32,000 bases of DNA from an uncultured Opitutales bacterium (GTDB lineage Bacteria; Verrucomicrobiota; Verrucomicrobiia; Opitutales; Intestinicryptomonadaceae), in assembly GCA_934613415.1 (NCBI GenBank), contig CAKTSY010000002.1:60001-92000 (forward strand). The letters run 5' to 3'. The notes under the pieces were generated by a model that made no database searches, was not told the origin of the DNA, and saw nothing but the letters and a program-made list of their open reading frames with translations. Below are positions 1-13,040 of this stretch, piece by piece. Each line of letters begins with the position of its first letter. Positions within the stretch are counted from its first letter, which is position 1. The translations under genes and the position numbers were made by a program.

Positions 1-1
1 A

Positions 2-190
2 GAAAGCATATTCCAGATTTCGGGGCTGGGAAGGTTTTTTATTTCCAGCGCGCTAGACAGCGACTATACAATGATTATGGGCTGTGTTTTGGTTTACGCG
101 TTTTTTATTGTGGTTTTCAATATGCTCTCCGACATTTTGCTGGCGGTGCTTAATCCTAAAATAGCGTCTAACTTGGGGCTTAGAAGATGA
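2..190 (+). CDS. ABC transporter permease (OppB/DppB-like), C-terminal fragment; 5-prime end lies outside the window
   Basis: The frame is open from the window edge to TGA at 188-190. The translation ...GRFFISSALDSDYTMIMGCVLVYAFFIVVFNMLSDILLAVLNPKI... looks like the last TM helix and tail of Opp/Dpp-type permeases. The stop overlaps the next start (ATGA). Confidence 0.7.
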   Translation, partial: ESIFQISGLGRFFISSALDSDYTMIMGCVLVYAFFIVVFNMLSDILLAVLNPKIASNLGLRR

Positions 191-969
191 GAAAACTTTG
201 CTTTGCATTTTTAATTGTATGCTTTGTCTTGTGCATGGGCGCCGACTTTTTTGCCCCCTATAGCTACGCCGAACAAAATTTGCAGCTTGGGGCCAGCTCG
301 CCTACATTAAAGCACATATTCGGCACCGACAATCTCGGGCGCGACTTGTTTTCGAGAATGCTTTACGGCGGGCGCGTTTCGTTTGCTATAGGCATTTTTG
401 CCACTTTGTTTGCGTCTGTTGTTGGGGTAAGCTACGGCGTTGTAAGCGCGTATTTCGGCAAAAAGTGCGACTATATTATGATGCGCATTGTAGATATTGC
501 ATATTCTTTGCCCTTTGCAGTTATTGTTATTTTGCTTACGCTGGCTTTTGGCAGAAGCGTTTGGCTTTTGTTTGTAGCCCTTGGCATTGCCGAATGGATG
601 ACTATGGCAAGAATTGTAAGAGGGCAGGTTTTAGAGCTTAAAAGCAGGCAGTTTGTAGAAGCTTCGGCGGTTTTGGGGCAAAGCACTTTTAAGGTAATAG
701 TAAAACACATTTTGCCCAACGCCCTGCCCGCCGTTTTGGTGTGCGCTACGCTTACCGTGCCGAGCGTGATGTTGTTGGAGTCTTTTTTAAGCTTTTTGGG
801 GTTGGGCGTGCAGGCTCCGCTGCCGTCGTGGGGCACTTTGCTTAGCGAGGGGGCAGACTTGATGGAAACGGCTCCCCACCTTTTGATTTTTCCGAGCATA
901 GCGTTTTCGCTTACGCTGTTTTCGATAAACAGGCTCGGCGAATATTTAAAGGAAAAGCTTGCCCGCTAG
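187..969 (+). CDS. ABC peptide/nickel-type transporter permease (OppC/DppC family)
   Basis: 260-aa ORF with multiple TM segments. It has the N-terminal FGTDNLGRDLFSRMLYGGRVS motif and the permease loop RQFVEASAVLGQSTFKVIVKHILPNALP typical of OppC/DppC. It is coupled to the upstream permease by an ATGA overlap. Confidence 0.85.
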   Translation: MRKLCFAFLIVCFVLCMGADFFAPYSYAEQNLQLGASSPTLKHIFGTDNLGRDLFSRMLYGGRVSFAIGIFATLFASVVGVSYGVVSAYFGKKCDYIMMRIVDIAYSLPFAVIVILLTLAFGRSVWLLFVALGIAEWMTMARIVRGQVLELKSRQFVEASAVLGQSTFKVIVKHILPNALPAVLVCATLTVPSVMLLESFLSFLGLGVQAPLPSWGTLLSEGADLMETAPHLLIFPSIAFSLTLFSINRLGEYLKEKLAR

Positions 970-1036
970 GCAAATTTTCTTGATATGCGGTTTTTTTCTT
1001 TTTATAAACGTTAACTTAATTGCAAAACTTTGATAT

Positions 1037-2860
1037 ATGATGATTAAGAAATTCACTGTGATTATGGCGTCGCTAACCGTTGCAACAGCTTTGGTTGCCG
1101 ACGAATTCGTTAAAGTTGCCTACAGATTCGAATCGGGCAAGCCCGTAGAACAACGCATTAAGCTAGACGAAGACCAAAACGGTGTCTTTACGCTTAAAAT
1201 AGCAAAAGGCGACATTCCGCAAAACGCAAAATACGTTATAGTTGCCCCCGAATTTGCCAGGGCAAAAGTAGGCGACAAGGGCTTTTTTGTAAGCCCAGAT
1301 TCAATGCTTGTAAACTTTACACAAAAGCCCGAGGGCGAAAGGCAGTGCTGGCAGCAGCCGCTTGCGCTTTCGGCGGTAAACGTAAACGGCAAAGCTTTTG
1401 CAATGGTTACCGAAACATTGCGTTTTTTGTGCAAAACTAAAATAGCGTTAAAAAACGGTGTGTATGACTACGAATACGTTTATTTAACCAAAAGCGAAAA
1501 GCCGTTTGAAGATTTAATTGTAAAGTTTTACCCGCTAAAGGGCAAAGACGCAACCTATGCCGGGGCTGCGCGTCTTTACAGAAAGTTGAAGTTGGATTCC
1601 GGCGAAGTTGTGCCCCTAAAAGTAAGGGCAAAAGACAATCCCGAATTGGCGTATGCCGTGCAGTCTTGCGAAATAAGAATGAGGCTCGGCTGGAAGCCGT
1701 ATCCTACGCCCGTTGTAGAGCAGACTTTGGAAAACGAGCCCGAAATGAAGGTGAAAATTCCGTTTGCAAAGGTTTGCGAAATAGAAAAAGACCTGTTGAA
1801 AGCGGGCGTAGACAAAGCCGAAATTTGCCTTGTAGGCTGGAATAAAAGCGGGCACGACGGCCGCTGGCCCGATTCTTTCCCCGTAGAGCCGAAACTTGGC
1901 GGCGAAAAGGGCTTGCGCAATCTTATTAAAGAATCGCAAAAAATGGGCTTTCAGATAGTCTGCCACTCGAATGCAGTAGGATCTTGCAATGTATCGCCCA
2001 ATTTCGACAAAAACGATATTTCGATAGACGAAAACGGGAAGTTGCGAAAGGGCGGAGTATGGTCTAACGGGCAAAACTACAGATTTTGTCCGAAGCGCTA
2101 CTACCAAAAGTTTTCGAAGGAAAACATACAAAAAATTACCGAATTGGGCTTTAGGGGTTTGCACTACATAGACGTAATTTCCACCGTAGGCCCCGTTGCA
2201 TGCCATAGCAAAGAGCACCCGATAACTTCGAAAATGTCGGCGGAATATTGGAATAGGGAACTTGCCGACGCAGCCCTGCTTATGGGGGGGGCTGCAAGCG
2301 AGGGCGGCTACGACTTTGTTGCGGCAAATCTGGATTTTGGTCTGTATATTACATACAACCTAAATCCCAAAAACTATCCAAAGCTAACCGACAGATACGT
2401 TCCGATGTGGCACATAGTTTACAACGGCATAATTATGAGCAACGCCGCAACCGACACTGTAAATTTCCCCATAAAGGAAAAATGGGCGCAGCTAAAGGTT
2501 GCAGAATTTGCCACAAAGCCCACCTTTTATTTTAATTCGGCGTTTTCCGACAAATTGGATATGAACTGGATGGGCAAAAACGACCTTCTTTGCTCTAACC
2601 CAGAAGAGACTAAAAAATCGGTTGCGGCGGTAAAACAGGGCTACGACCTTATGAAAGAGCTTGGCTATTTGCAGTACGAATTTATGCAAGACCATTGTCA
2701 GATTGCCGACAATGTGTTTAAGTCGGTATTTTCGGACGGTAGCGAAATTATAACAAACTATTCGCAAACGCCTTTCGAATATAAGGGCGAGTTGGTTGCC
2801 CCCATGGCATACAGGCTTTTTAAGCCAAGCGTTTGGCAACGCTTTGTAAACTTGTTTTAA
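1037..2860 (+). CDS. Secreted hypothetical protein, possibly TIM-barrel glycoside-hydrolase-like
   Basis: 607-aa ORF with an N-terminal signal-like segment (MMIKKFTVIMASLTVATALVA). The central stretch GWNKSGHDGRWPDSFPVEPKLGGEKGLRNLIKESQKMGFQIVCHSN...HYIDVIS resembles glycosidase-like barrels; the family assignment is from memory only. A strong hairpin terminator follows. Confidence 0.75.
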   Translation: MMIKKFTVIMASLTVATALVADEFVKVAYRFESGKPVEQRIKLDEDQNGVFTLKIAKGDIPQNAKYVIVAPEFARAKVGDKGFFVSPDSMLVNFTQKPEGERQCWQQPLALSAVNVNGKAFAMVTETLRFLCKTKIALKNGVYDYEYVYLTKSEKPFEDLIVKFYPLKGKDATYAGAARLYRKLKLDSGEVVPLKVRAKDNPELAYAVQSCEIRMRLGWKPYPTPVVEQTLENEPEMKVKIPFAKVCEIEKDLLKAGVDKAEICLVGWNKSGHDGRWPDSFPVEPKLGGEKGLRNLIKESQKMGFQIVCHSNAVGSCNVSPNFDKNDISIDENGKLRKGGVWSNGQNYRFCPKRYYQKFSKENIQKITELGFRGLHYIDVISTVGPVACHSKEHPITSKMSAEYWNRELADAALLMGGAASEGGYDFVAANLDFGLYITYNLNPKNYPKLTDRYVPMWHIVYNGIIMSNAATDTVNFPIKEKWAQLKVAEFATKPTFYFNSAFSDKLDMNWMGKNDLLCSNPEETKKSVAAVKQGYDLMKELGYLQYEFMQDHCQIADNVFKSVFSDGSEIITNYSQTPFEYKGELVAPMAYRLFKPSVWQRFVNLF

Positions 2861-2883
2861 GTTTTTGCGCGCATAAAACAAAA

Positions 2884-2922
2884 ACGCCGCTTTAAGGGTT
2901 TTCCCCAAAGCGGCGTTTTTTT
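2884..2922. terminator. Bidirectional rho-independent terminator between convergent genes
   Basis: Stem acgccgcttt (2884-2893) pairs with aaagcggcgt (2907-2916). The stem is preceded by an A-run and followed by a T-run at 2917-2922. Confidence 0.75.
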
Positions 2923-2938
2923 GTGCTAAAAAAACTTT

Positions 2939-3367
2939 TTATATGCAAAAATCGGCAGACGAATTTTCGCGGTTAAGCACGTCTTGCAATGTCATAGATT
3001 CCAAATCCTTTCGGATTTTTTCGTTTAATTCTTCCCATATTTCGCGGGCGGCGCAACCCTCGGCGCGCTTGCACTTTTTCGGGCACATAACGCAGTCTAC
3101 AATAGAAAGTGGGCCTTCCATTGTTTCTATAATTTCCAGTAGCGTTATGTGTTTTGGCATACGCTTAATTTTGTAACCGCCTTTTGCGCCCCTTACCGAG
3201 GCAATCATTCCGGCATTGCGCAATTTTAAAATAAGCCTGCCCACATATTTGGGCGAAAGCCCCTGTGTTTTGCAGATGTCGGCAATCATTCTCGGTGTGT
3301 CGCCGTCGTTTTGCGCCAAATCGAGCATAATTCTAAGCCCGTACCTGCCTTTTGTAGAAATTTTCAT
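2939..3367 (-). CDS. Rrf2 family transcriptional regulator (IscR/NsrR-like, Cys-ligand type)
   Basis: The N-terminus MKISTKGRYGLRIMLDLA plus a winged-helix region is the Rrf2 signature. The C-terminal Cys cluster DCVMCPKKCKRAEGC is consistent with Fe-S ligation. Confidence 0.9.
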   Translation of the reverse strand: MKISTKGRYGLRIMLDLAQNDGDTPRMIADICKTQGLSPKYVGRLILKLRNAGMIASVRGAKGGYKIKRMPKHITLLEIIETMEGPLSIVDCVMCPKKCKRAEGCAAREIWEELNEKIRKDLESMTLQDVLNRENSSADFCI

Positions 3368-3544
3368 AAATCAATTTCGCGTTTTATAGGCTCACAAAAG
3401 CGTTGTGTCGAGTATAATTTTTATCGGCAAAAATGCAAAAAAAGCGCGCCCTTGTTCCTGCGTGGCTGTAGGTTCAAATTTTTACAGCAAAAAATAATTG
3501 ACTAAATCCGCCAAAACATAAAGTATTTACCGAATATAAATCAG

Positions 3545-3617
3545 GCCGAAGTAGCTCAGCTGGTAGAGCAACGCTTTCGTAAAGCGTGGGTCGTCGGTTC
3601 AAATCCGATCTTCGGCT
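3545..3617 (+). tRNA. tRNA-Thr (anticodon CGT)
   Basis: Manual 73-nt cloverleaf. Acceptor GCCGAAG/CTTCGGC; D arm GCTC-AGCTGGTA-GAGC; anticodon stem ACGCT/AGCGT with loop TTCGTAA (CGT at 3578-3580); T arm GTCGG-TTCAAAT-CCGAT; discriminator T. Confidence 0.9.
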
Positions 3618-3696
3618 CTGGTGTTTTTTGCGGCACAGGCATTATGTTTTGTTGCCGTTTTTTGTTTTTAAGGGTCAACACCAAAGAGAGTGGGTT

Positions 3697-4456
3697 TTAG
3701 TGAAAGACGCCGCATAGAACCAAGACCCTCAATCTGTAATTTTCAAAGTTTTTATAACCGTAAGCCATTCGTTGTATTAGTTTCATTTTCCTGTGGGAGC
3801 CTTCTGTTATCCCGTTATTTTTCGTAAATCTCCACATTCGGATTATCGGTGTAAACCGGTCGCTTATCGTCTCTGCTAGCCGCTCAAACTCTTGTGTCGC
3901 TTCGTATTTCATTTGCTTCATCATTCCTTTCAGTTCTCTTATATTCCTTATACATTCCTTTGCCGTTTGATGTTTTCTGTTTAACAGCTCGCACAACCTT
4001 TCCTTAAACTCGTATGCCAGCTTTATCGCGGGATTGTTCTCAAAAAACTTTTCCAATCGCTTAAGCTCTTCGGAGTTCAACCTATCTCCACGTTTTCGCA
4101 ATGGGTATGTCAACTTTCTATTCCATTTTACTTCTTCTTGGGCTTGTTTGCAATTCAAGCGAAGCGCGAATGAGATTTTGCCGTAGGCAAAAGACCCGAA
4201 GGGCGAGACGGTTTGCGCATGCAAACGCGAGTCAAAACTCCATAAAGTGATACAGCACCAATCTTATAACGTGGAACCTGTCCGCCACTATTTTTGCTTT
4301 CGGAAAACACCGCCTTACTATGCTTCGGTAGCTGCTGCTTAAATCCATGCACACTACTTTTACTTTATCCTTTCCTTTATAGCTCATCAAGAATATCACA
4401 CTGGGCATTGTAAGAGTTTTTCCCTCTTCTTTGCCCTCCTTTTTTATCCATTCCAC
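3697..4456 (-). mobile_element. ISL3-family transposase remnant (pseudogene: N-terminally truncated and split into two frames)
   Basis: The ORF at 4232-4456 carries VVCMDLSSSYRSIVRRCFPKAKIVADRFHVIRL (DDE region with DRFH). The ORF at 3697-4224 carries the ISL3 C-terminus TKNNGITEGSHRKMKLIQRMAYGYKNFENYRLRVL. The two parts are in different frames with a stop between them. About the first 190 aa of a full-length enzyme are missing. Confidence 0.8.
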
Positions 4457-4475
4457 TATCTTTGACGAAGAACGA

Positions 4476-4505
4476 AAAATTTCACACGGGTTCGTGTGAA
4501 ATTTT
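4476..4505. terminator. Perfect 13-bp hairpin (terminator-like) at the truncated edge of the IS remnant
   Basis: aaaatttcacacg (4476-4488) pairs with cgtgtgaaatttt (4493-4505) around the loop ggtt. A/T runs form the stem ends in both orientations. Confidence 0.4.
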
Positions 4506-4751
4506 AAACGGAGAGAGAGGGAATAGGCTTAAAACTATTAACTTCCTTGCTCTTAATATATTGCAATTTTACAAAAAATCTCAGTTGCGTTTAGTTGCAA
4601 TATTTTTTGTAGGTGGGAAAATATAATAGACTTGAATTTTGATAAATTAACTGTCGCAGTAATAAAATCCGAAACAAGGCTTGAAAAAACTCCAAGATAG
4701 CTTAGCGTAGAAAGTGGTATAAAATTTTGCGAAAAAGAAAATTTGGCAATA

Positions 4752-5741
4752 ATGTTGGAACGGATTGACATAAAGGAGAACTCTCTGTTGAAGCTCAATT
4801 CAGAGCTTCTCGATTCTCTATTGAAAGACCATACAACAAACCGCAACATTATTTGGGGGACTGACAATTATAAGCACTTCGGAATTGGATACCGTTATAA
4901 CGAGCAGATTTTTCCAGAGCTTATCACTGAAGATTGCGGAGAAATAATACGTCCCCGCGTCTCGAAAAGCCAAGAAGAACAACAGGCAAGAGTTAAAGAT
5001 AAAGCCGAGGTATTTACCCCTACTTGGATATGCAACGCCCAAAATAATCTTGTCGACGAAGCGTGGTTCGGCAGAAAAAATGTTTTCAACATAGAAAAAG
5101 ATAAAAATTGGACAGTCAAATCCAAGCCTGTAGCGTTCCCTGAAAACAAGACTTGGCAGGACTATATAGCATTAAATCGATTGGAAGTAAGTTGCGGAGA
5201 AGCTCCATATCTTGTAAGCCGCTACGACGCAATTAGCGGAAAACCTATCCCAATAAAAAGGAGAATCGGGCTTCTCGATAGAAAGCTTAGAGTTGTCGGA
5301 GAGAATACAACAACGGAAAGCGAATGGATAGACTCCGCGTTGACCGCCTTTAAAAGCGTTTACGGCTTTGAATGGCAAGGCGACAATTTGCTTCTGGCTC
5401 GGGAAAACCTACTTTTTACGTACAGCGATTACTACCGGGAAAAATTCAAAAAACTTCCTTCCATAATTGAGCTTTTGAATGTTTCGGAGATTATATCTTG
5501 GAACTTATGGCAAATGGACGGATTAAAATGCGTCGTACCGTATAGTTGCCACGAAGAGACAATCGTCCAAAAGGATTTGATAGAAACAAGAAAATTAAAA
5601 GTCCCCTGCAAGGGCTGCCAAAGGAACGACATTAGGCTTCATAACGGCAAATATTGCTACATAATGGATTGGCAAAAAGGCAAACGCAAAAAATTTGTTT
5701 CGCTGATAAGGAGAGAAAAAAATGCAATCGGGAAAAAATAG
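4752..5741 (+). CDS. Methyltransferase-fold protein lacking a canonical catalytic motif IV, with a C-terminal Cys cluster; candidate partner subunit of the downstream RM-like fusion
   Basis: The ORF track starts at TTG 4743; the first ATG is at 4752. Features: a motif X-like AEVFTPTW (5007-5027), a motif I-like LEVSCGEAPYL (5181-5213), no (D/N/S)PP(Y/F/W) anywhere, and a Cys/His cluster SCH...PCKGCQ...HNGKYC (5529-5657). The 3-prime end overlaps the next ORF by 20 nt. Confidence 0.8.
   Translation: MLERIDIKENSLLKLNSELLDSLLKDHTTNRNIIWGTDNYKHFGIGYRYNEQIFPELITEDCGEIIRPRVSKSQEEQQARVKDKAEVFTPTWICNAQNNLVDEAWFGRKNVFNIEKDKNWTVKSKPVAFPENKTWQDYIALNRLEVSCGEAPYLVSRYDAISGKPIPIKRRIGLLDRKLRVVGENTTTESEWIDSALTAFKSVYGFEWQGDNLLLARENLLFTYSDYYREKFKKLPSIIELLNVSEIISWNLWQMDGLKCVVPYSCHEETIVQKDLIETRKLKVPCKGCQRNDIRLHNGKYCYIMDWQKGKRKKFVSLIRREKNAIGKK
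5708..5715 (+). promoter_or_regulatory. Shine-Dalgarno sequence for the 1358-aa ORF
   Basis: AAGGAGAG lies 6 nt upstream of ATG 5722, inside the end of the upstream ORF. The host gene starts I inspected (1037, 16534, 17886, 27210, 28492, 30534, 3367-, 14076-, 23692-) have no comparable motif. Confidence 0.6.
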
Positions 5742-8700
5742 GTATAAAAATCCGTTCGGGTATAAGCTGATTTATATATTCCGAATCAACGATGATGCCC
5801 ATGAAAACTGCCTAAAAGTCGGCGATACTACCGTTATGTACGAAGGTTCTCCCGCCGAGCTTACTCCAAATTGCAGCAAACTCAACTCTGCCGCCAATGC
5901 CCGCATAAACGAGTGCACAAGAACTGCGGGCATTCATTACGATTTGCTTTATACAGAACTCGCGTACTTTCAAAAATCTGACGGGAAATTTAAGGCATTC
6001 CGAGACTATACCGTACATAAAGTTTTACTAAATTCTGGTATAAAAAAGAAGGAAATCCAAAACGCGCGGGAATGGTTCATTGCGGATTTAGAGACGGTAA
6101 AAAACGCAATAAAAGCCGTAAAAGATGGGCGAAAATCCCTCACTGGCGCGGAAATTTCGACAGATAAAAACCCGATAGTCTTCCGTCCGTCGCAAGTAGA
6201 AGCCATAGAAAAGACTGCAAAATATTTTAAGGGCAAAGCGCATAAACAGTTTTTGTGGAATGCAAAAATGCGTTTCGGGAAAACCCTTGCCGCCTATGAA
6301 GTTGTGCGCCAGTTAGGATATGGAAAAACCCTAATATATACCCATCGCCCTGTTGTTCTTAAAGGTTGGAGAGAGGATTTTTATAAAATCTTTACCGACG
6401 AAAATTCTCCTTGGATTTTCGGGAACAAACCAAATCAGACGATAAATTCTGGTACAGAGCTAAAAGATCTATTGGCGTCTGGCAAAAAATTTGTATATTT
6501 TGCGTCTTTGCAAGATTTGCGCGGTTCAAAATCGGTTGGCGGAAATTTCGATAAAAACGACGAAGTTTTCAAAACAGACTGGGATTTGGTAATTGTCGAC
6601 GAAGCCCACGAAGGCACGCAAACGGGGCTTGGCGAAGAAGTCCTTGCGCAGATATTTACAAAGGAGAATAAAACAAAGCTGCTTCAACTTTCGGGAACGC
6701 CGTTTAATCTGATAACCAAATATACCGCCGACGAAACGTATACTTGGGACTATACAAACGAGCAGGAGGCAAAGGCGATGTGGGACAAACTCTACGGCGG
6801 AGACTCCAATCCATACGCCGATTTGCCCTCAATGCAGATTTACACGTTTGACTTGGCAAAGCAGTTTAATAACTTTGTCGACAGCCAAAAGGCGTTTAAT
6901 TTTAGGGAGTTTTTCAAGGTATGGTCGGGCGATATCATGCGTGACGGTAAACCTGTTCCGCAAGATTCGGCAATCGGCAGATTTGTATATGAAAAAGAAG
7001 TCGAAAAATTCCTGAATTTGATTTCAAGAGCCGACAAAAGCAGCAATTTCCCATTCTCGAAAGAAGAATTTAGGGGATACTTTCGCCATACATTGTGGAT
7101 GCTTCCGGGGGTTGCTTCCGCAAAGGCTATGAGCGAAATGCTGCAAAAGCACCCGATTTTCGGGAAATTTAATATCGCAAACGTTGCGGGCGACGGCGAT
7201 GAAGAAGAGGAAAGCAAGGAAGCTTTAAAGAAAGTTGAAAACGCCATTGGAGATGACCCAGACGATTCATATTCCATAACGCTTTCTTGCGGACGCCTCA
7301 CAACGGGAGTGTCGGTAAAGGAATGGACTGCTGTCATGATGTTGTCGGGGTCTTATTCGACGGCGGCTTCTCAGTATTTGCAGACAATTTTCCGCGTGCA
7401 GACCCCCGCGGAAATCAACGGCAAGACAAAAGAAACCTGCTATGTTTTCGACTTTGCTCCCGACAGAACCCTCAAAATGATGGCAGATGCCGTAAATCTT
7501 TCCACAAAGGCTGGACGTTCCGAGGAAGGCTCAAAAAAAGCCATGGGGAAATTACTCAACTTCTGTCCTATTATAGCAGTGGACGGAACAAATATGCGCG
7601 AATACAACGTTGAAGAAATGTTGGTTCAGTTAAAGAAGGCGTATATAGAAAAAGTTTGCGTCAACGGTTTTGACGATAGCCACCTGTATAACTTTAACCT
7701 GCCAGAACTTTCAGAAATGGACAGGGAAATGCTCGCACATTTGAACAATATAGCAAAGGCGAGCGGCCAAAGCAAAAAGCCTCAAGACCTCATCGTAAAT
7801 AAACAGGGGTTTGACGAAGAAGAACACGAAAAGAAGGAAAGCAACCCCTCTAAGTCTTCTCGCGAAAAAACCGCCGAAGATTTGGAAAAGGAAAAGAAGA
7901 AAAAGGAGAGAGCCAATCTTATTTCCAATCTTCGCGCAATTTCCATACGCATACCATTGCTTGTTTACGGCGCAAATATACCCTTTGAACAGGACATCAC
8001 AGTAGACAATATTACCGGTATTGTTGACGACATTTCTTGGGAAGAATTTATGCCCAAAGGGTTTTCAAAAGAAGACTTCAAATACTTCAAAAAGTTTTAC
8101 GATACAGAGGTGTTCATAGGCGCGGGCAAACGTATTCGCCAAAGAATAAAAGATGCCGAAAGTTTGCCTGTAATGGAGCGCGTGAAAGAAATTGCTGAAA
8201 TATTCGCCATGTTCCGCAATCCGGATAAGGAAACGGTTCTGACTCCGTGGCGTGTCGTAAATATGCATATGAGCGACTGCCTCGGCGGTTATGATTTTTG
8301 GAATGAAAACCATACTGAAACATTGGATACCCCCAGAGTTGTAGACCACGGCAAGATAACCGCGGAAACATTCTGGAATCGTGACGCAAAATTTTTGGAG
8401 ATAAATTCAAAAACGGGGCTTTATCCGCTTTATGTGGCGTATAGCCTATTCTGCGCATTGCGACAGTCGAATAAGCGCAAGACCGACTCCGAGCTATGGG
8501 AAAAAGTGCTAAGAGATAACGTGTATGTGATATGTAAAACGCCAATGGCTGAATATATCACTAAAAGAACTCTTGCAGGATATAAGGATATTAAAGTAAA
8601 CGCAAAATACATAGATAACCTCGTTAACAAAGCTCAAGACGAAAAAACACGAAAGAACTTAGTAAAACTTATACAGAACGGAAAGACCTTTTGGAATATA

Positions 8701-9798
8701 AATCAGGATACAGATATGAAATTTGATGCTATTGTAGGAAATCCACCATACACCGAAATTACGGCTAAAAAAGACACAAATAATGGTCAAAAGCGACAAA
8801 AGAATATATTTCAATATTTTCAGCAAATTGCTGATGCTTTAGGTTCAAATACATCTCTTATATACCCTGGAGCAAGATGGATTCATCGTTCCGGAAAAAA
8901 CATGGAGGATTTTGGAAAAACACAGATAAACGATGGACACTTAGATCTTCTAATTTACTATCCAGATTGGACAGAATTATTTCCTACAGCGCAAATTGGC
9001 GATGGTATTTCCATTGTATTAAAGTTAAGAAATAAAAAGGACTTTGGTTTCACATATGTATATAGACTAAAAAGCGAAGAACACTCTGTGTTTATTAAAG
9101 AAAAACCAGGTAGCAACCTTATTCCATTAAATCCCGTTAACAGCTACATTATAGAAAAGATAAAGCAAACTATGCTTAACTATTCTCTGCCTCCTCTTGC
9201 TGTTTCCGTACTTTCACAAAAACTCTTTGGCATAGAAAGTTCATTTGTTGAACTAAATCCTAAAAAAGTTCGACCATATAACAAAGGCGATAATTTTGAT
9301 ACACAAAATGAAATAAAGCTATTTACAAACAATAAAGCTGGCAAAGCAGGGCGAGCACAGTGGTATATTGCTAAAAGAAATATAATTCACAAGGAAGCGC
9401 AAAAGTATATTGATCGTTGGAAAGTAGTAGTATCAAGTGCTAACGCAGGAGGACAAAAACGTAGTAATCAAATTGCAATAATGGATAATCATACAGCATT
9501 TGGGCGTTCACGTGTAGCTCTCAAAGATTTTGCAACAAAGGAAGAAGCTCGGAACTTCTTCAAATATGCACAAAGTACATTTATTCGTTTTGCTTTTTTG
9601 TTAACAGATGAGTCTCTTACTTCTTTAGCAAAATGGGTTCCTGATTTAAAGAATTATAAAAATAACAATGGGTTGATTGATTTTTTTGCAGATGTAAATA
9701 CAGAAGTGTACAAATTGTTCAATATAAGTGAAAAATATCAAAAGTATATAAATGATTATATTGCTAAAATAGATTTAGCGCGAGGGAAACAAATATAA
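5722..9798 (+). CDS. Single-polypeptide GIY-YIG/T5orf172-like nuclease + SF2 DEAH helicase + gamma-class N6-adenine DNA methyltransferase/TRD fusion (Type ISP-like restriction-modification architecture)
   Basis: N-terminal module: GYKLIYIF...CLKVGDT...ARINE...REWF (about 5758-6096). Helicase motifs: Walker A AKMRFGKT (6262-6285), DEAH (6598-6609), LSGTP (6691-6702), and a helicase C-lobe with GRLTTGVSV...QTIFRVQTP (about 7290-7407). A K/E-rich linker sits at about 7800-7920. MTase motifs: motif X-like VLTPWRVV, motif I-like FLEINSKTGLYPLYV (8392-8436) and FDAIVGNPPY (NPPY at 8740-8751). A roughly 350-aa C-terminal region follows. Confidence 0.85.
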   Translation: MQSGKNRYKNPFGYKLIYIFRINDDAHENCLKVGDTTVMYEGSPAELTPNCSKLNSAANARINECTRTAGIHYDLLYTELAYFQKSDGKFKAFRDYTVHKVLLNSGIKKKEIQNAREWFIADLETVKNAIKAVKDGRKSLTGAEISTDKNPIVFRPSQVEAIEKTAKYFKGKAHKQFLWNAKMRFGKTLAAYEVVRQLGYGKTLIYTHRPVVLKGWREDFYKIFTDENSPWIFGNKPNQTINSGTELKDLLASGKKFVYFASLQDLRGSKSVGGNFDKNDEVFKTDWDLVIVDEAHEGTQTGLGEEVLAQIFTKENKTKLLQLSGTPFNLITKYTADETYTWDYTNEQEAKAMWDKLYGGDSNPYADLPSMQIYTFDLAKQFNNFVDSQKAFNFREFFKVWSGDIMRDGKPVPQDSAIGRFVYEKEVEKFLNLISRADKSSNFPFSKEEFRGYFRHTLWMLPGVASAKAMSEMLQKHPIFGKFNIANVAGDGDEEEESKEALKKVENAIGDDPDDSYSITLSCGRLTTGVSVKEWTAVMMLSGSYSTAASQYLQTIFRVQTPAEINGKTKETCYVFDFAPDRTLKMMADAVNLSTKAGRSEEGSKKAMGKLLNFCPIIAVDGTNMREYNVEEMLVQLKKAYIEKVCVNGFDDSHLYNFNLPELSEMDREMLAHLNNIAKASGQSKKPQDLIVNKQGFDEEEHEKKESNPSKSSREKTAEDLEKEKKKKERANLISNLRAISIRIPLLVYGANIPFEQDITVDNITGIVDDISWEEFMPKGFSKEDFKYFKKFYDTEVFIGAGKRIRQRIKDAESLPVMERVKEIAEIFAMFRNPDKETVLTPWRVVNMHMSDCLGGYDFWNENHTETLDTPRVVDHGKITAETFWNRDAKFLEINSKTGLYPLYVAYSLFCALRQSNKRKTDSELWEKVLRDNVYVICKTPMAEYITKRTLAGYKDIKVNAKYIDNLVNKAQDEKTRKNLVKLIQNGKTFWNINQDTDMKFDAIVGNPPYTEITAKKDTNNGQKRQKNIFQYFQQIADALGSNTSLIYPGARWIHRSGKNMEDFGKTQINDGHLDLLIYYPDWTELFPTAQIGDGISIVLKLRNKKDFGFTYVYRLKSEEHSVFIKEKPGSNLIPLNPVNSYIIEKIKQTMLNYSLPPLAVSVLSQKLFGIESSFVELNPKKVRPYNKGDNFDTQNEIKLFTNNKAGKAGRAQWYIAKRNIIHKEAQKYIDRWKVVVSSANAGGQKRSNQIAIMDNHTAFGRSRVALKDFATKEEARNFFKYAQSTFIRFAFLLTDESLTSLAKWVPDLKNYKNNNGLIDFFADVNTEVYKLFNISEKYQKYINDYIAKIDLARGKQI

Positions 9799-9850
9799 CA
9801 AAAGAAGGAATCGACTTCATCGAGTCAATGATTAAATCAATGGAATAAAA

Positions 9851-10354
9851 ATGGAGGAAGTTAAAAACTACTTTTATAATTATCTTTTAAGGCCGATTTC
9901 TGAACTTGTTTTGAATCAAAGAATATACAAAGACTTTCAGAAAAATTGTATTTTAAAGGGTTATAAAGAGGATTACTTTACAGACTTTGTCGATATAAAC
10001 TACTACAAGGCAACAATTACAGACCTATGCAGACTTCTAGACTATCCCAGACGAGAAGATGATAGGAATTTTGTAGGATTTATAAAGTTATTTAAAGAAG
10101 AAGAAGCCAATATTATAAAAAGTAGAAGTAATATACCTGTATTTTGCTTAAGCTCAAAGAGCACAAAATATGTAGATATATCTGATAAAATAGAGCCAGA
10201 TTTTAACAAAGTAGAACACGATAGAAAAATAAAAGAATTAGAGGAAAAATTTAAGATTTTTCAAGAGTATCGGAACAAAGTAAATTGTCACCAAACTTCT
10301 ACAGAAAAAAACCGCCAACTATGGAAGATATTGATGCGACTATTTCGCTTTTAG
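9851..10354 (+). CDS. Small hypothetical protein with a HEPN-like R-x5-H motif; apparently truncated by a frameshift at an A7 tract
   Basis: 167-aa ORF in the lowest-G+C part of the window. It contains YRNKVNCH near the C-terminus. The coding-looking sequence continues in another frame to TAA at 10459-10461 (see findings). Confidence 0.6.
   Translation: MEEVKNYFYNYLLRPISELVLNQRIYKDFQKNCILKGYKEDYFTDFVDINYYKATITDLCRLLDYPRREDDRNFVGFIKLFKEEEANIIKSRSNIPVFCLSSKSTKYVDISDKIEPDFNKVEHDRKIKELEEKFKIFQEYRNKVNCHQTSTEKNRQLWKILMRLFRF
10305..10311 (+). repeat. A7 homopolymer at the frame break of the HEPN-like ORF
   Basis: acagAAAAAAAccgcc, read directly from the sequence. One extra A would fuse 9851-10354 to the open frame that ends at 10461. 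Confidence 0.9.
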
Positions 10355-10496
10355 AAGATTTACTGTTAATATATGCGAAACTATTCGGTATATGTTTATG
10401 CTCCATAATTCCAAAACCTATTTACCGAAATCCACCATTACTGGATATACCCGTAGATTAAAATCTAATGGCATTGGACTATCCATATTATAGAGT

Positions 10497-10524
10497 ATAA
10501 AAAAGCCCTCATTATCGAGGGCTT
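10497..10524 (-). terminator. Rho-independent terminator for the minus-strand ORF ending at 10529
   Basis: Stem aagccctc (10503-10510) pairs with gagggctt (10517-10524). The A-run on the plus strand at 10497-10504 gives a U-run after the hairpin on the minus-strand transcript. Confidence 0.65.
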
Positions 10525-10528
10525 AGAA

Positions 10529-11032
10529 TCAGAAGAACATTCTTAGTAAAATCGCGACCAGAATGCCTATCTGCCAGACGGCTATGCGTTTGAAGGTGTC
10601 GTTATCGGCACTCAGTCGAAAGACGTTTTTCTGGATTTCGTCTTCGGCAGTCGAAGTGTCGGGCAGCTCCGAATCGAAACGCAGGACAATCTGCGAAAGC
10701 TCCAAGCCCGACGGGAAGCCCTCCGCGTAAAGATACGTCGTGCTCGAAAACGACGAAACCGCGATGTGCTTCGTATAACTTCCGTTTCCCTCGAACGGTA
10801 GCGACCACCCGTAAAACGCCAAATCCCTGCTCGACGCGCCGTAGTTTTTCCAAAATCCCGAATTCCCCGCGCCGTAGAAAAATCCCTCGAAGCCCTGCAA
10901 ACACGAACAGGTAATAGAATGCAGATAAACCGCGTCGGTCGATTCCTCTTCGAGCTTGAAATATGCGCTTGTTCCCTTGTACAAATAGAGCTTGAATGCG
11001 CCCGACCATTTGAGTGTGAGCGTCATTTCCAC
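10529..11032 (-). CDS. Hypothetical protein with a C-terminal TM anchor; may be the distal part of a broken larger gene
   Basis: 167-aa ORF (GTG at 11032, ATG at 11026) ending in the hydrophobic tail RIAVWQIGILVAILLRMFF, followed by a terminator. It is in the same frame as the upstream ORF, separated from it by a single TGA. Confidence 0.45.
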   Translation of the reverse strand: MEMTLTLKWSGAFKLYLYKGTSAYFKLEEESTDAVYLHSITCSCLQGFEGFFYGAGNSGFWKNYGASSRDLAFYGWSLPFEGNGSYTKHIAVSSFSSTTYLYAEGFPSGLELSQIVLRFDSELPDTSTAEDEIQKNVFRLSADNDTFKRIAVWQIGILVAILLRMFF

Positions 11033-11038
11033 GGTCTG

Positions 11039-11993
11039 TCATTCGTCTTTTGGCAGAATCACGCCCGACTTGTCGATGTTCTCGGTCTTTGAAACTATCG
11101 TCCCCGCACTTGCGGACGCAATGCTGCCAAGCCTTAGCTGGACTTTCGTGACGTTCGGGTTCGTCGTCGGCAGGTAAATCGAGAACCTGATTTTGTGCAG
11201 CATTCCGTTGCCGCTTAAGTACTTTGAGGGAAGTTCGTATTCGTGCGAAGTGTTGTAGGTATCGGGCACGAGCGAAATTTTCAGGACATTCTTTTTGCCG
11301 CCGATTTCCGTGCCGCCTACGCCTTTCGAGTGCGGGCTGTTTAAAAGAAAAAGTATGGGACATTTGAAAAATACCTCTCATAAGGAGAAAACGCCTTGCC
11401 AAGCAAAGACGCCTGAGTGCGGAGTTTGCCGTTCATAAGGTGCGTGTTGAATGCGTCGAAACCCCAGAAGTATTCAAAGGCCTCTTGGTCGATGTCGATC
11501 CAGACGGTTTCGCCACGCTTTCTGATGTCGTAGGTGTCGTTTAGCAATTTCTCCCATTTCGCAATCGCCGACTCGTCGAGCGGTATAATCTCCTTGGAGT
11601 TTGGGACGGTTTTGGGCGCGCCTTTGCAGTAGAGGAATCTTCCAAGAAAGACGCTGCCGATAAAGCTGCCTTTGTTTTTTGAAACGATATTGTCGATTAT
11701 GTCGTTTCAAAAAACAAAGGCAGGGAAATGCAGGGATTGGGCACGTTAAATACGCCGTTTACAATTCGGTTGTGCTTTATAGGCTCGCCGCACCAGCCGC
11801 TGTTTAGCGTTTCGGTGTCGTCGCCCTGCTTGCGGTAGTTGCCCGCCACAATGTAGATGCTGTCCCGCGCCTCCTCGCATACGGAGAAAATTTCTCCGCC
11901 GCTTTCCTCCATCGCCTTTATCATGGCTTCCGATGTCGCGTTTTTTACGATGAAATCCGGATTTTTTGAAAACTTTGGGGCTATTTGGATTTT
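11039..11993 (-). pseudogene. String of broken minus-strand ORF fragments (unknown family)
   Basis: Three open segments: 11039-11378, 11341-11706 and 11697-11993. They are separated by a frame change near 11341-11378 and by a stop within the inverted repeat at 11666-11723. Most lack an ATG start. Confidence 0.35.
11666..11723. repeat. Perfect 22-bp inverted repeat with a 14-nt spacer
   Basis: ctgcctttgttttttgaaacga (11666-11687) is the exact reverse complement of tcgtttcaaaaaacaaaggcag (11702-11723). Confidence 0.95.
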
Positions 11994-12725: not shown

Positions 12726-13040
12726 TTACTTCTTTTCGATTAGCTCTACGGGAATGCCCTCTTCTACAATATAGGCAAAGCGCGCGTTTTCGCCCAATGG
12801 GTGCGGGGGCACCAAAATGTTTGCGGTTTTCAGCTCTTCGTCGAGATTGTCTACCGTATATGCAATATGCGGGCAATCCTGCATAAGCTTGGGCATTGTG
12901 CAGTCGAAATCGAACTTAAGCCATTCTATTGAATTTTTGCTTTTCGATATGTCGCTAACTGCAAGTTTAAGAGCCGGAATATATGTCATATATTCCTTGT
13001 TTTCGTTCGTCGGGAAACCGAAGTGGTTGAATGTTCTCAT
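12726..13040 (-). CDS. VOC (glyoxalase/bleomycin-resistance fold) family protein
   Basis: 104-aa ORF with an HIAYTVDNLDEEL-type motif and a size typical of single-domain VOC proteins. Confidence 0.65.
   Translation of the reverse strand: MRTFNHFGFPTNENKEYMTYIPALKLAVSDISKSKNSIEWLKFDFDCTMPKLMQDCPHIAYTVDNLDEELKTANILVPPHPLGENARFAYIVEEGIPVELIEKK

Follow-up and report, generated by a model that had tools for sequence, protein, structure and literature searches.

A putative two-subunit ATP-dependent restriction-modification locus with a candidate stand-alone half-methylase gene in an uncultured gut Opitutales bacterium

Results

Overview of the A–B locus

The window analysed here is a 32,000-nucleotide (nt) stretch of contig CAKTSY010000002.1 from an uncultured Opitutales bacterium, and all positions are given in its coordinates. 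It contains three co-oriented genes on the plus strand, termed A, B and C (Table 1). We consider it fairly probable that A and B together form a two-subunit, ATP-dependent restriction-modification (R-M) enzyme with a Type ISP-like build, accompanied by gene C as a lineage-specific accessory. Gene B is shown to encode, in this order, a nuclease of the T5orf172 family (GIY-YIG clan), a superfamily 2 (SF2) DEAH motor, a helical linker, an NPPY methylase domain and a variable target-recognition domain (TRD). Gene A, by contrast with a complete methylase, reads as the stand-alone S-adenosyl-L-methionine (AdoMet)-binding half of an Eco57I-like gamma-class methylase that lacks the catalytic half.

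The original prediction, made from the letters of the window alone, had described three tightly packed genes forming a candidate defence operon with the nuclease, translocase and modification modules of ATP-dependent restriction systems. The listing of open reading frames (ORFs) bears out the packing, with a 20-nt overlap between the ORFs of A and B (5722–5741) and a 52-nt gap between B and C (9799–9850), and the Pfam domains of gene B supply the modules. The start codon of gene B is preceded by a GGAGAG ribosome-binding site 5 nt upstream. A and B, both uninterrupted ORFs in the window, are translationally coupled and nearly always adjacent.

Gene A as the probable AdoMet-binding half of a methylase

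Gene A carries the motifs AEVFTP (X-like), LEVSCGEAPY (I-like) and YGFEWQ (II-like), followed by SWNLWQMDG. In consensus form, AEVFTP, YGF(E/D)W and LE(I/V)xCGEAPY, resembling motifs X, II and I, occur in the right order, and a Cys/His zinc-ribbon-like element is inserted in the C-terminal part of the protein. Neither motif IV, (D/N/S)PP(Y/F/W), nor the beta4–7 half is found in gene A or in its 40 aligned homologues; the fused relatives have their NPPY past the position at which gene A ends.

The fused relatives carry the assignment. A profile search for the gene A module returned 2442 cluster representatives, of which the best 150 were inspected. Among these 150, 101 are stand-alone proteins of 250–420 amino acids (aa), and 28 are 600–780 aa long, nearly all of the latter having NPPY about 50–110 residues after WNxWQMDG. 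In each of the eight long proteins examined (8/8), a complete A-module is followed by MKFDxVIGNPPYQ, the remaining Eco57I domain and a TRD. Because the A-module is fused directly to an Eco57I catalytic half in these proteins, A is best understood as the AdoMet-binding half, and gene A itself stops exactly at the expected start of the catalytic half.

Two further proteins join A to B in other ways. In P0298 (933 aa), gene A residues 1–248 are joined to the rear of B (from the linker onwards, about residue 640), the nuclease and helicase being gone, and in P0281 (1125 aa) an A-module without the zinc ribbon is joined directly to a T5orf172-helicase. Both may be genuine products of deletion or may have arisen in assembly; in the former case they would tie A and B together further.

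The original prediction had called A a methyltransferase fold without motif IV. That description holds through the fusion proteins only; it did not emerge from Pfam, from PDB sequence searches or from Foldseek. No family in Pfam, NCBIfam or PHROG and no PDB chain is matched by the sequence of gene A, and Pfam searches at E≤1 on 40 members of the gene A family recover no methylase family. The AlphaFold2 (AF2) model of gene A (predicted local distance difference test, pLDDT, 89; predicted TM-score, pTM, 0.88) has no PDB match at E≤1e-3 in Foldseek. Gene A does match the PADLOC profile PDLC03390, 'MTase_II', end to end (E 3.9e-123), and some homologues are named 'restriction endonuclease subunit M' or 'restriction endonuclease' at NCBI.

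Gene B combines nuclease, motor, methylase and target recognition

The nuclease and the Eco57I/NPPY methylase of gene B share a single ORF of 1358 aa, on which its residues are numbered. At the N-terminus, the T5orf172 match (Table 1) is reinforced by that of a gene B homologue (Pfam E 1.1e-7), residues 17–133 reach MUG113 at E 0.061 (14.3 bits, under its 22.3-bit cut-off), and the domain is retained in divergent gene B clades that are about 24% identical to window B. The motor is matched by Pfam ResIII (residues 153–328, E 1.2e-15), no family match was found for the linker, and the methylase domain, whose beta4 strand is MKFDAIVGNPPY, is matched by Pfam Eco57I (residues 933–1082, 2e-23).

In an alignment of 26 homologues, the nuclease residues Y18, K32, G34, R61 (of ARINE), H99 and E117 (of REWF) are invariant, as are G186-K187-T188 of Walker A, D293–H296 of DEAH, the SGTP sequence (324–327) and N1007–Y1010 of NPPY. 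Thus all five motifs that had been picked out in gene B beforehand (ARINE, REWF, MRFGKT, DEAH and NPPY) are present and conserved throughout these homologues.

Immediately before the NPPY half, gene B contains a second, divergent module that resembles an AdoMet-binding half, which we call the B-type half. Beta-alpha-beta elements are predicted here by AF2. By motif reading, however, it lacks the canonical glycines of motif I and the acidic residue of motif II, in place of which NSKTG and K/T or A are found, and the B-type half is probably degenerate.

The AF2 model of gene B covers residues 159–1358. Its best PDB match in Foldseek is the Type ISP enzyme LlaBIII (4xqk_A, E 1.1e-17, 1456 columns), accompanied by LlaGI (5ffj_B, E 1.3e-14); both Type ISP matches extend over more than 1390 columns. 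Next come the methylases CamA and BrxX/PglX and the motors Chd1, ISWI and RadD. Taken together, the Pfam domain order and the top Foldseek matches give gene B a Type ISP layout with a different nuclease. The structural comparison proposed with the original prediction thus places gene B next to LlaBIII and LlaGI, and leaves gene A, as noted above, without a PDB match.

The PADLOC comparison was likewise divided, gene A being labelled and window B matching no restriction-enzyme model at E≤0.01. A sister-clade B from Rikenella (L052), to which window B is 24% identical, matches PDLC03626, 'REase_MTase_IIG', over its full length (E=0). The B protein of Pediococcus pRS5 also matches PDLC03626, and the cassette (see below) matches PDLC03375. 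The three pieces of the system are therefore each represented by a PADLOC profile, PDLC03390 for the A-module, PDLC03375 for the cassette and PDLC03626 for the full-length B of the sister clade.

A methylase–TRD cassette occurs on either subunit

Two loci (L098 and L099) carry complete methylases of 669 aa and 703 aa, followed by a T5orf172-helicase of about 1120 aa. The latter ends in a B-type half (NQIFTPKxVV, DLYMKSGxYI, QVYGLAPTE) and lacks the NPPY half, whereas in window B the same B-type module is continued by it. As these sequences read, the family occurs in two forms: an A-module with the cassette, followed by a nuclease-helicase-B-half, or an A-module alone, followed by a nuclease-helicase-B-half that carries the cassette, the window representing the second form. 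In about a quarter of family clusters the A-module carries the cassette of NPPY half and TRD, and the partner helicase-nuclease is then without one. Since this cassette is found on either the A-module or the helicase-nuclease, it moves between the subunits. In keeping with this, the window cassette (taken as residues 995–1358) shares 51% identity (361 aa, E 1e-114) with the C-terminal cassette of P0267, a methylase of the first form.

The edge of the cassette is also visible among close relatives of window B. P0003, P0004 and P0006 are 83–98% identical to it up to about residue 960 and 10–38% identical beyond, the one exception in front being the poorly conserved linker window 661–720 (65–85%). 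More distant B homologues are about 50% identical in front and mostly 60–80% identical in the cassette parts 1021–1080 and 1201–1320. In addition, a drop in GC content to 30–33% begins at the same junction. Judged from these identity profiles, the cassette junction is a recombination breakpoint.

A disrupted example of the first form is seen in a Bifidobacterium longum plasmid (L088; NZ_CP065398.1, 7866–14681), where an IS256 element splits the methylase composed of A-module and cassette. The two parts are labelled 'restriction endonuclease subunit M' (328 aa) and 'Eco57I domain' protein (383 aa), and a T5orf172-helicase of 1113 aa comes after them.

Genes A and B form an obligate and widespread pair

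Gene A occurs in at least 590 species. In a synteny scan with one genome per species, for which 80 loci were fetched, 73 have a B homologue as the immediately following gene in the same orientation; five loci are at a contig edge and two are rearranged, so that the pair is kept in 73 of 75 evaluable loci. The linkage of A and B is thus shown to be obligate. The original prediction had proposed neighbour co-occurrence as a check on all three genes. A and B pass together through this comparison; gene C does not, being absent from all 87 other A–B loci scanned, so that the conserved unit is A plus B rather than the three-gene unit first put forward.

Each of A and B has at least 8000 protein clusters. 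Gene A is 52–60% identical across Bacteroidales, Clostridia, Treponema, Selenomonadaceae, Bacilli and Flavobacteriales, and stays at that level where B is down to 22–27%; where B stands at 24%, A is still about 55% identical. On these identities, A is under far stronger constraint than B. The pair is plasmid-borne as well, in Pediococcus (a plasmid of 10 kb) and in Enterococcus (conjugative plasmids). The family is common, in gut Bacteroidales, Clostridia, spirochaetes and plasmids of lactic acid bacteria, and here in a gut Opitutales.

In Bacteroidales, the A–B pair lies beside integrase and MobC/relaxase genes of mobilisable elements. The slot after gene B holds variable cargo (L001–L007, L052, L013, L090), including AAA_15/AAA_21 ATPases, a Schlafen/AlbA_2 and HATPase_c_4 protein, DUF262, a weakly nucleoside deoxyribosyltransferase-like protein and transposases. 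In a metagenome-assembled genome of Treponema sp. (L046, 9974–20151), an Eco57I-like Type IIG pair has inserted after gene A, comprising a 617-aa HSDR_N nuclease-methylase and a 542-aa M.Eco57I-like methylase, and a disrupted gene B comes next in three pieces. Here one restriction system interrupts another.

Gene C is an accessory gene inactivated in the window

The Rx5H motif of gene C, RNKVNCH (10271–10291, R141–H147), belongs to a longer pattern, YRNKxNCHxTS, that is invariant in all seven clusters of the gene C family. The intact allele P0124 (203 aa, equivalent to a run of eight A), read in other samples, matches Pfam HEPN_AbiU2 at E 0.0031 (17.5 bits, below the 26.8 cut-off), and HEPN_AbiU2 is matched by five of the seven family members (best E 8.9e-5). 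The HEPN-like label given to gene C in the original prediction therefore stands, on an invariant motif and weak HEPN_AbiU2 matches. Gene C has no NCBIfam or PHROG match, and PDB sequence searches gave nothing useful.

In the window, the predicted frameshift at the A7 run is present, and the C-terminal quarter of gene C is lost just after the Rx5H motif. This allele is the commoner one, recorded on 17 contigs, the intact allele being read on three. The polymorphism of the A7 tract could be decay, or slippage-type on/off switching.

Together with A and B, gene C is confined to the nearest relatives of the window locus. In the closest (L100–L102), an intact gene C has its start codon 2 nt beyond B, which ends at 7998 (gene C begins at 8001), though the cassette differs, and in a near relative (L091) an intact gene C also follows B. 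Elsewhere (L103/L104, 2089–8618), a homologue that is 58% identical is the last gene of another operon, which also encodes a ResIII helicase, a protein of 265 aa and an N6_N4_Mtase protein of 938 aa, and a further member follows an unrelated gene in an Opitutales genome. This suggests that the small HEPN family of gene C specialises in ending helicase-containing R-M operons. HEPN_AbiU2 genes in R-M operons were catalogued in 2013, and the idea of a PrrC-like 'back-up' has been published (PMC3710099). Gene C is thus a lineage-specific accessory gene, inactivated here.

The island and its surroundings

As originally described, a tRNA gene, which is the left edge of the inserted island, and an insertion-sequence (IS) remnant adjoin the locus (Table 1), and the DNA looks foreign, with a GC content of 30–42% over 4000–10500 against about 45% in the flanks. 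A search of the far edge of the island for att-like direct repeats of the tRNA 3' end found none, yielding just short imperfect repeats that are probably due to chance, and promoter and terminator scans did no better than on shuffled sequence.

Table 1. Features of the locus, with positions in the 32,000-nt window
Feature	Position	Strand	Basis
tRNA-Thr (CGT)	3545–3618	+	ARAGORN; Rfam RF00005 at 69.4 bits
ISL3-family transposase remnant, fragments of 175 aa and 74 aa	3697–4456	-	Pfam DDE_Tnp_ISL3 3.9e-26 and 8.5e-16; NCBIfam transpos_ISL3, partial
Gene A	4743 (TTG) or 4752 (ATG) to 5741	+	329 aa from ATG 4752, start chosen by homologues and gene callers
Gene B	5722–9798	+	1358 aa, ORF listing
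T5orf172 (GIY-YIG clan) nuclease	5770–6120 (residues 17–133)	+	Pfam T5orf172 E 9.3e-4, 20.1 bits (cut-off 20)
SF2 helicase-like ATPase	6178–7521 (residues ~153–600)	+	Motifs MRFGKT (Walker A), DEAH, SGTP, QTIFRVQ
Helical linker, coupler-like, with low-confidence Lys/Glu-rich stretch	7522–8217 (residues ~601–832)	+	AF2 secondary structure, pLDDT
Second, divergent AdoMet-half-like module (B-type half)	8218–8715 (residues ~833–998)	+	Motifs ETVLTPWRVV, LEINSKTGLYPLY, VYVICKTPMA; invariant alignment columns
Methylase catalytic half and TRD (cassette)	8716–9798 (residues 999–1358)	+	NPPY at 8740–8751; Pfam Eco57I
Gene C, AbiU2-like HEPN	9851–10461	+	Two frames, 9851–10354 (167 aa) and 10285–10461, join at A7 run 10305–10311
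GC-rich hairpin and T-run, terminator-like, between gene C and a convergent 253-aa ORF	10503–10524	-	Pattern scan, consensus match only

Beyond the hairpin, three ORFs on the minus strand look like remnants of an integrative element: a 253-aa ORF (10602–11363) that matches no family and lies in DNA of about 50% GC, a 75-aa fragment (11697–11924) with a weak DUF3987 match, and a 104-aa ORF (12726–13040). A 34-nt imperfect direct repeat (74% identity) links positions 3512–3545, just 5' of the tRNA, with 8674–8707 inside gene B; it is probably a chance match, though it lies near the recombination breakpoint at the cassette junction. The housekeeping flanks (1–3367 and from 13060 onwards) fall in 90%-identity clusters labelled 'Opitutales bacterium', and the A–B homologues are mostly from Bacteroidales and Clostridia. 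Human gut metagenomes, Hadza samples included, carry the same locus repeatedly. On these grounds the host is most likely a gut member of the Opitutales (Verrucomicrobiota) represented by metagenome assemblies.

Discussion

Proposed mechanism and alternatives

In the mechanism that we favour, the TRD of B would read an asymmetric site, at which adenine of one strand would be methylated so as to mark self DNA. At an unmodified site, the motor would hydrolyse ATP and translocate, and the T5orf172 domain would then cut, probably upon convergence of two enzymes, by analogy with LlaGI and LlaBIII. Gene A would provide an obligate subunit docked beside the catalytic half, where it most likely supplies or gates AdoMet binding, a role we prefer because, as we read the motifs, the glycine of motif I and the acidic residue of motif II persist in A but are lost in the B-type half. 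Recombination of the cassette of NPPY half and TRD would change specificity. Gene C, where intact, would be an AbiU2-type HEPN ribonuclease (RNase), possibly serving as a PrrC-like back-up.

Several observations weigh against this two-subunit scheme. The assignment of A to the methylase fold rests on the fusion proteins and on motif reading; the Foldseek matches of its model are weak, to the MmeI-like DrdV and to BrxX with probability ≤0.2, and hhalign finds no similarity between the A and B families, so that at the sequence level A is not simply a paralogue of the internal half of B. PDB sequence searches with gene B (phmmer, and hmmsearch with profiles) recovered no related chain, LlaGI and LlaBIII included, nor, as already mentioned, does window B match a PADLOC restriction-enzyme model, and the AF2 model from which the Type ISP likeness derives is of only moderate quality (pLDDT 72, pTM 0.52). 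In that model, B alone folds its own N-terminal half and the NPPY half as a CamA- or LlaBIII-like methylase domain, and B may therefore be catalytically self-sufficient, with A in a different role. A literature search found no experiment, biochemical or structural study for any member of the family. In addition, the nearest studied analogue, DnmA–YeeB–YeeC, was found neither to restrict DNA nor to defend against phages in B. subtilis (PMC9973331), and activity of the window locus thus cannot be assumed.

Because AF2 folds B alone as a complete methylase-like domain, a purely regulatory A is a serious rival, which we regard as possible but less likely. Here B would be a self-sufficient, single-chain Type ISP-like enzyme, and A a regulator, an assembly or dimerisation factor or an AdoMet sensor, derived from the N-terminal half of a former companion methylase. 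B residues of about 890–1358 are modelled as methylase plus TRD and superpose on CamA (target-normalised TM-score of about 0.5) and on LlaBIII, Type ISP enzymes act as single polypeptides (PMC4666363), and hhalign shows no homology between A and the B half that would suggest interchangeable halves. Such an explanation does, however, have to accommodate the canonical motif I and II residues that the B-type half lacks and A retains, the much stronger constraint on A than on B, and the covalent joining of the same cassette to the A-module in many lineages. A further reading, which we think unlikely, is a methylase active site built in trans: the free A half would complete the C-terminal catalytic half of B, the degenerate half of B would be a placeholder, and exchange of the halves would decide between methylation and translocation with cutting. 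Trans assembly, if true, would explain why the cassette is found on either subunit; the self/non-self switch of the restriction motor would then be an adenine methylase that occurs naturally in two parts.

That the locus is not an active restriction system at all, but a module for methylation or epigenetics, a relic that mobile elements carry along or the self-protection methylase of such an element, strikes us as quite improbable. The analogous cluster of methylase, helicase and T5orf172 protein has neither a phage nor a transformation phenotype in B. subtilis (PMC9973331), many A–B loci reside in mobilisable elements next to relaxase and integrase genes, and gene C is already decayed in the window. 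On the other hand, the residues of the nuclease, Walker A, DEAH and NPPY motifs do not vary from phylum to phylum, the ORFs of A and B are intact here, cassette shuffling and defence-island neighbours (Schlafen/AlbA_2, DUF262, AAA_15) are typical under phage selection, and homologues of dnmA and yeeB in Vibrio crassostreae alter phage sensitivity (PMC9973331). We give very little credence to the integrated three-gene system of the original prediction, in which the HEPN protein would join A and B as a core effector. An intact gene C does follow B in the nearest relatives (L091 and L100–L102), and HEPN genes are often functionally tied to R-M systems (PMC3710099), but the three-gene reading is already largely refuted by distribution: besides missing from the other A–B loci, the gene C family has seven clusters against the thousands of A and of B, ends an unrelated ResIII and N6_N4_Mtase operon or follows an unrelated gene, and bears the frameshift both here and in the majority of the copies sampled.

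Under the two-subunit reading that we prefer, the locus would be a natural experiment in which a cofactor half, a catalytic half and a DNA-reading domain have been redistributed between the subunits of an ATP-dependent restriction enzyme, and a GIY-YIG-type counterpart to the Mrr-based collision-cleavage model of Type ISP enzymes. There is a practical side as well. Annotation tools take the locus apart, calling A an 'orphan Type II methylase' when it is only part of one and leaving the helicase-methylase unclassified, and this split annotation likely leads methylome-to-gene assignments and defence censuses in gut bacteria to mis-score it.

Comparison with known systems

The original prediction did not recognise this combination as a named system. 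Uncharacterised relatives of the Type ISP and MmeI enzymes, equipped with helicases and GIY-YIG nucleases, had in fact been noted in 2009 and 2012 (PMC2731913, PMC3553950), and the literature search for the exact A–B pair found passing remarks only. For A, B, C and the fused methylases, nothing useful came from searching PDB sequences, whether with single sequences or with profiles. The REBASE-derived profiles of PADLOC come close: PDLC03390 covers gene A from end to end, PDLC03626 the sister-clade B proteins (L052 and pRS5) and PDLC03375 the cassette, whereas window B itself matches none of them. We note that the labels are partial descriptions, 'Type IIG' being silent on the helicase and 'MTase' for A hiding the missing catalytic half.

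Among other candidates, MANTIS/Gao_RL was rejected, as it has four genes including an AAA+ ATPase, and Hma, DISARM and BREX were rejected for want of PADLOC matches. Eco57I resembles the window locus in that a large R-M fusion protein includes a methylase domain of the Eco57I type and has a smaller methylase-related gene upstream. M.Eco57I, however, is a complete methylase where A is a half, and Eco57I has no helicase; with its catalytic half missing, A was rejected as an Eco57I-type companion methylase. The PrrC–EcoprrI and AbiU2 HEPN RNases share with gene C the Rx4-6H motif, the weak HEPN_AbiU2 matches and a place at the end of R-M operons, but gene C is small, stand-alone, devoid of an ABC ATPase domain and frameshifted here, and is known from sequence alone.

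The DnmA(YeeA)–YeeB–YeeC operon, a conserved operon of defence islands (PMC2731913, PMC9973331), combines an MmeI-like methylase, an SF2 helicase and a T5orf172/GIY-YIG protein, that is, the same three activities with the same nuclease family. It differs in having three separate proteins and a complete MmeI-like methylase, whereas in the window the nuclease and helicase are fused and an Eco57I-type methylase is spread over two genes; no MmeI_Mtase Pfam match is found in the window proteins.

The closest likeness is to the Type ISP enzymes LlaGI and LlaBIII, which provide the best PDB fold matches and, like gene B, place a nuclease, an SF2 motor, a linker, a gamma-class NPPY adenine methylase and a TRD on one chain. 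Moreover, close relatives of window B differ mainly in their specificity module, as LlaGI does from LlaBIII (PMC3553950). Unlike these enzymes, whose nuclease is of the Mrr, PD-(D/E)xK type, window B uses a T5orf172/GIY-YIG-clan nuclease and has no detectable sequence homology to LlaGI or LlaBIII. Type ISP enzymes are single polypeptides, whereas the window locus has the conserved partner A (73 of 75 evaluable loci), and the module swapped in the window family is the methylase catalytic half together with the TRD, not the TRD alone. In sum, given the PADLOC labels for A (MTase_II) and for the sister clade of B (REase_MTase_IIG), this is not a new defence system; what is new about it is a half-methylase present as a free, putative subunit, and a cassette that changes places between the two proteins.

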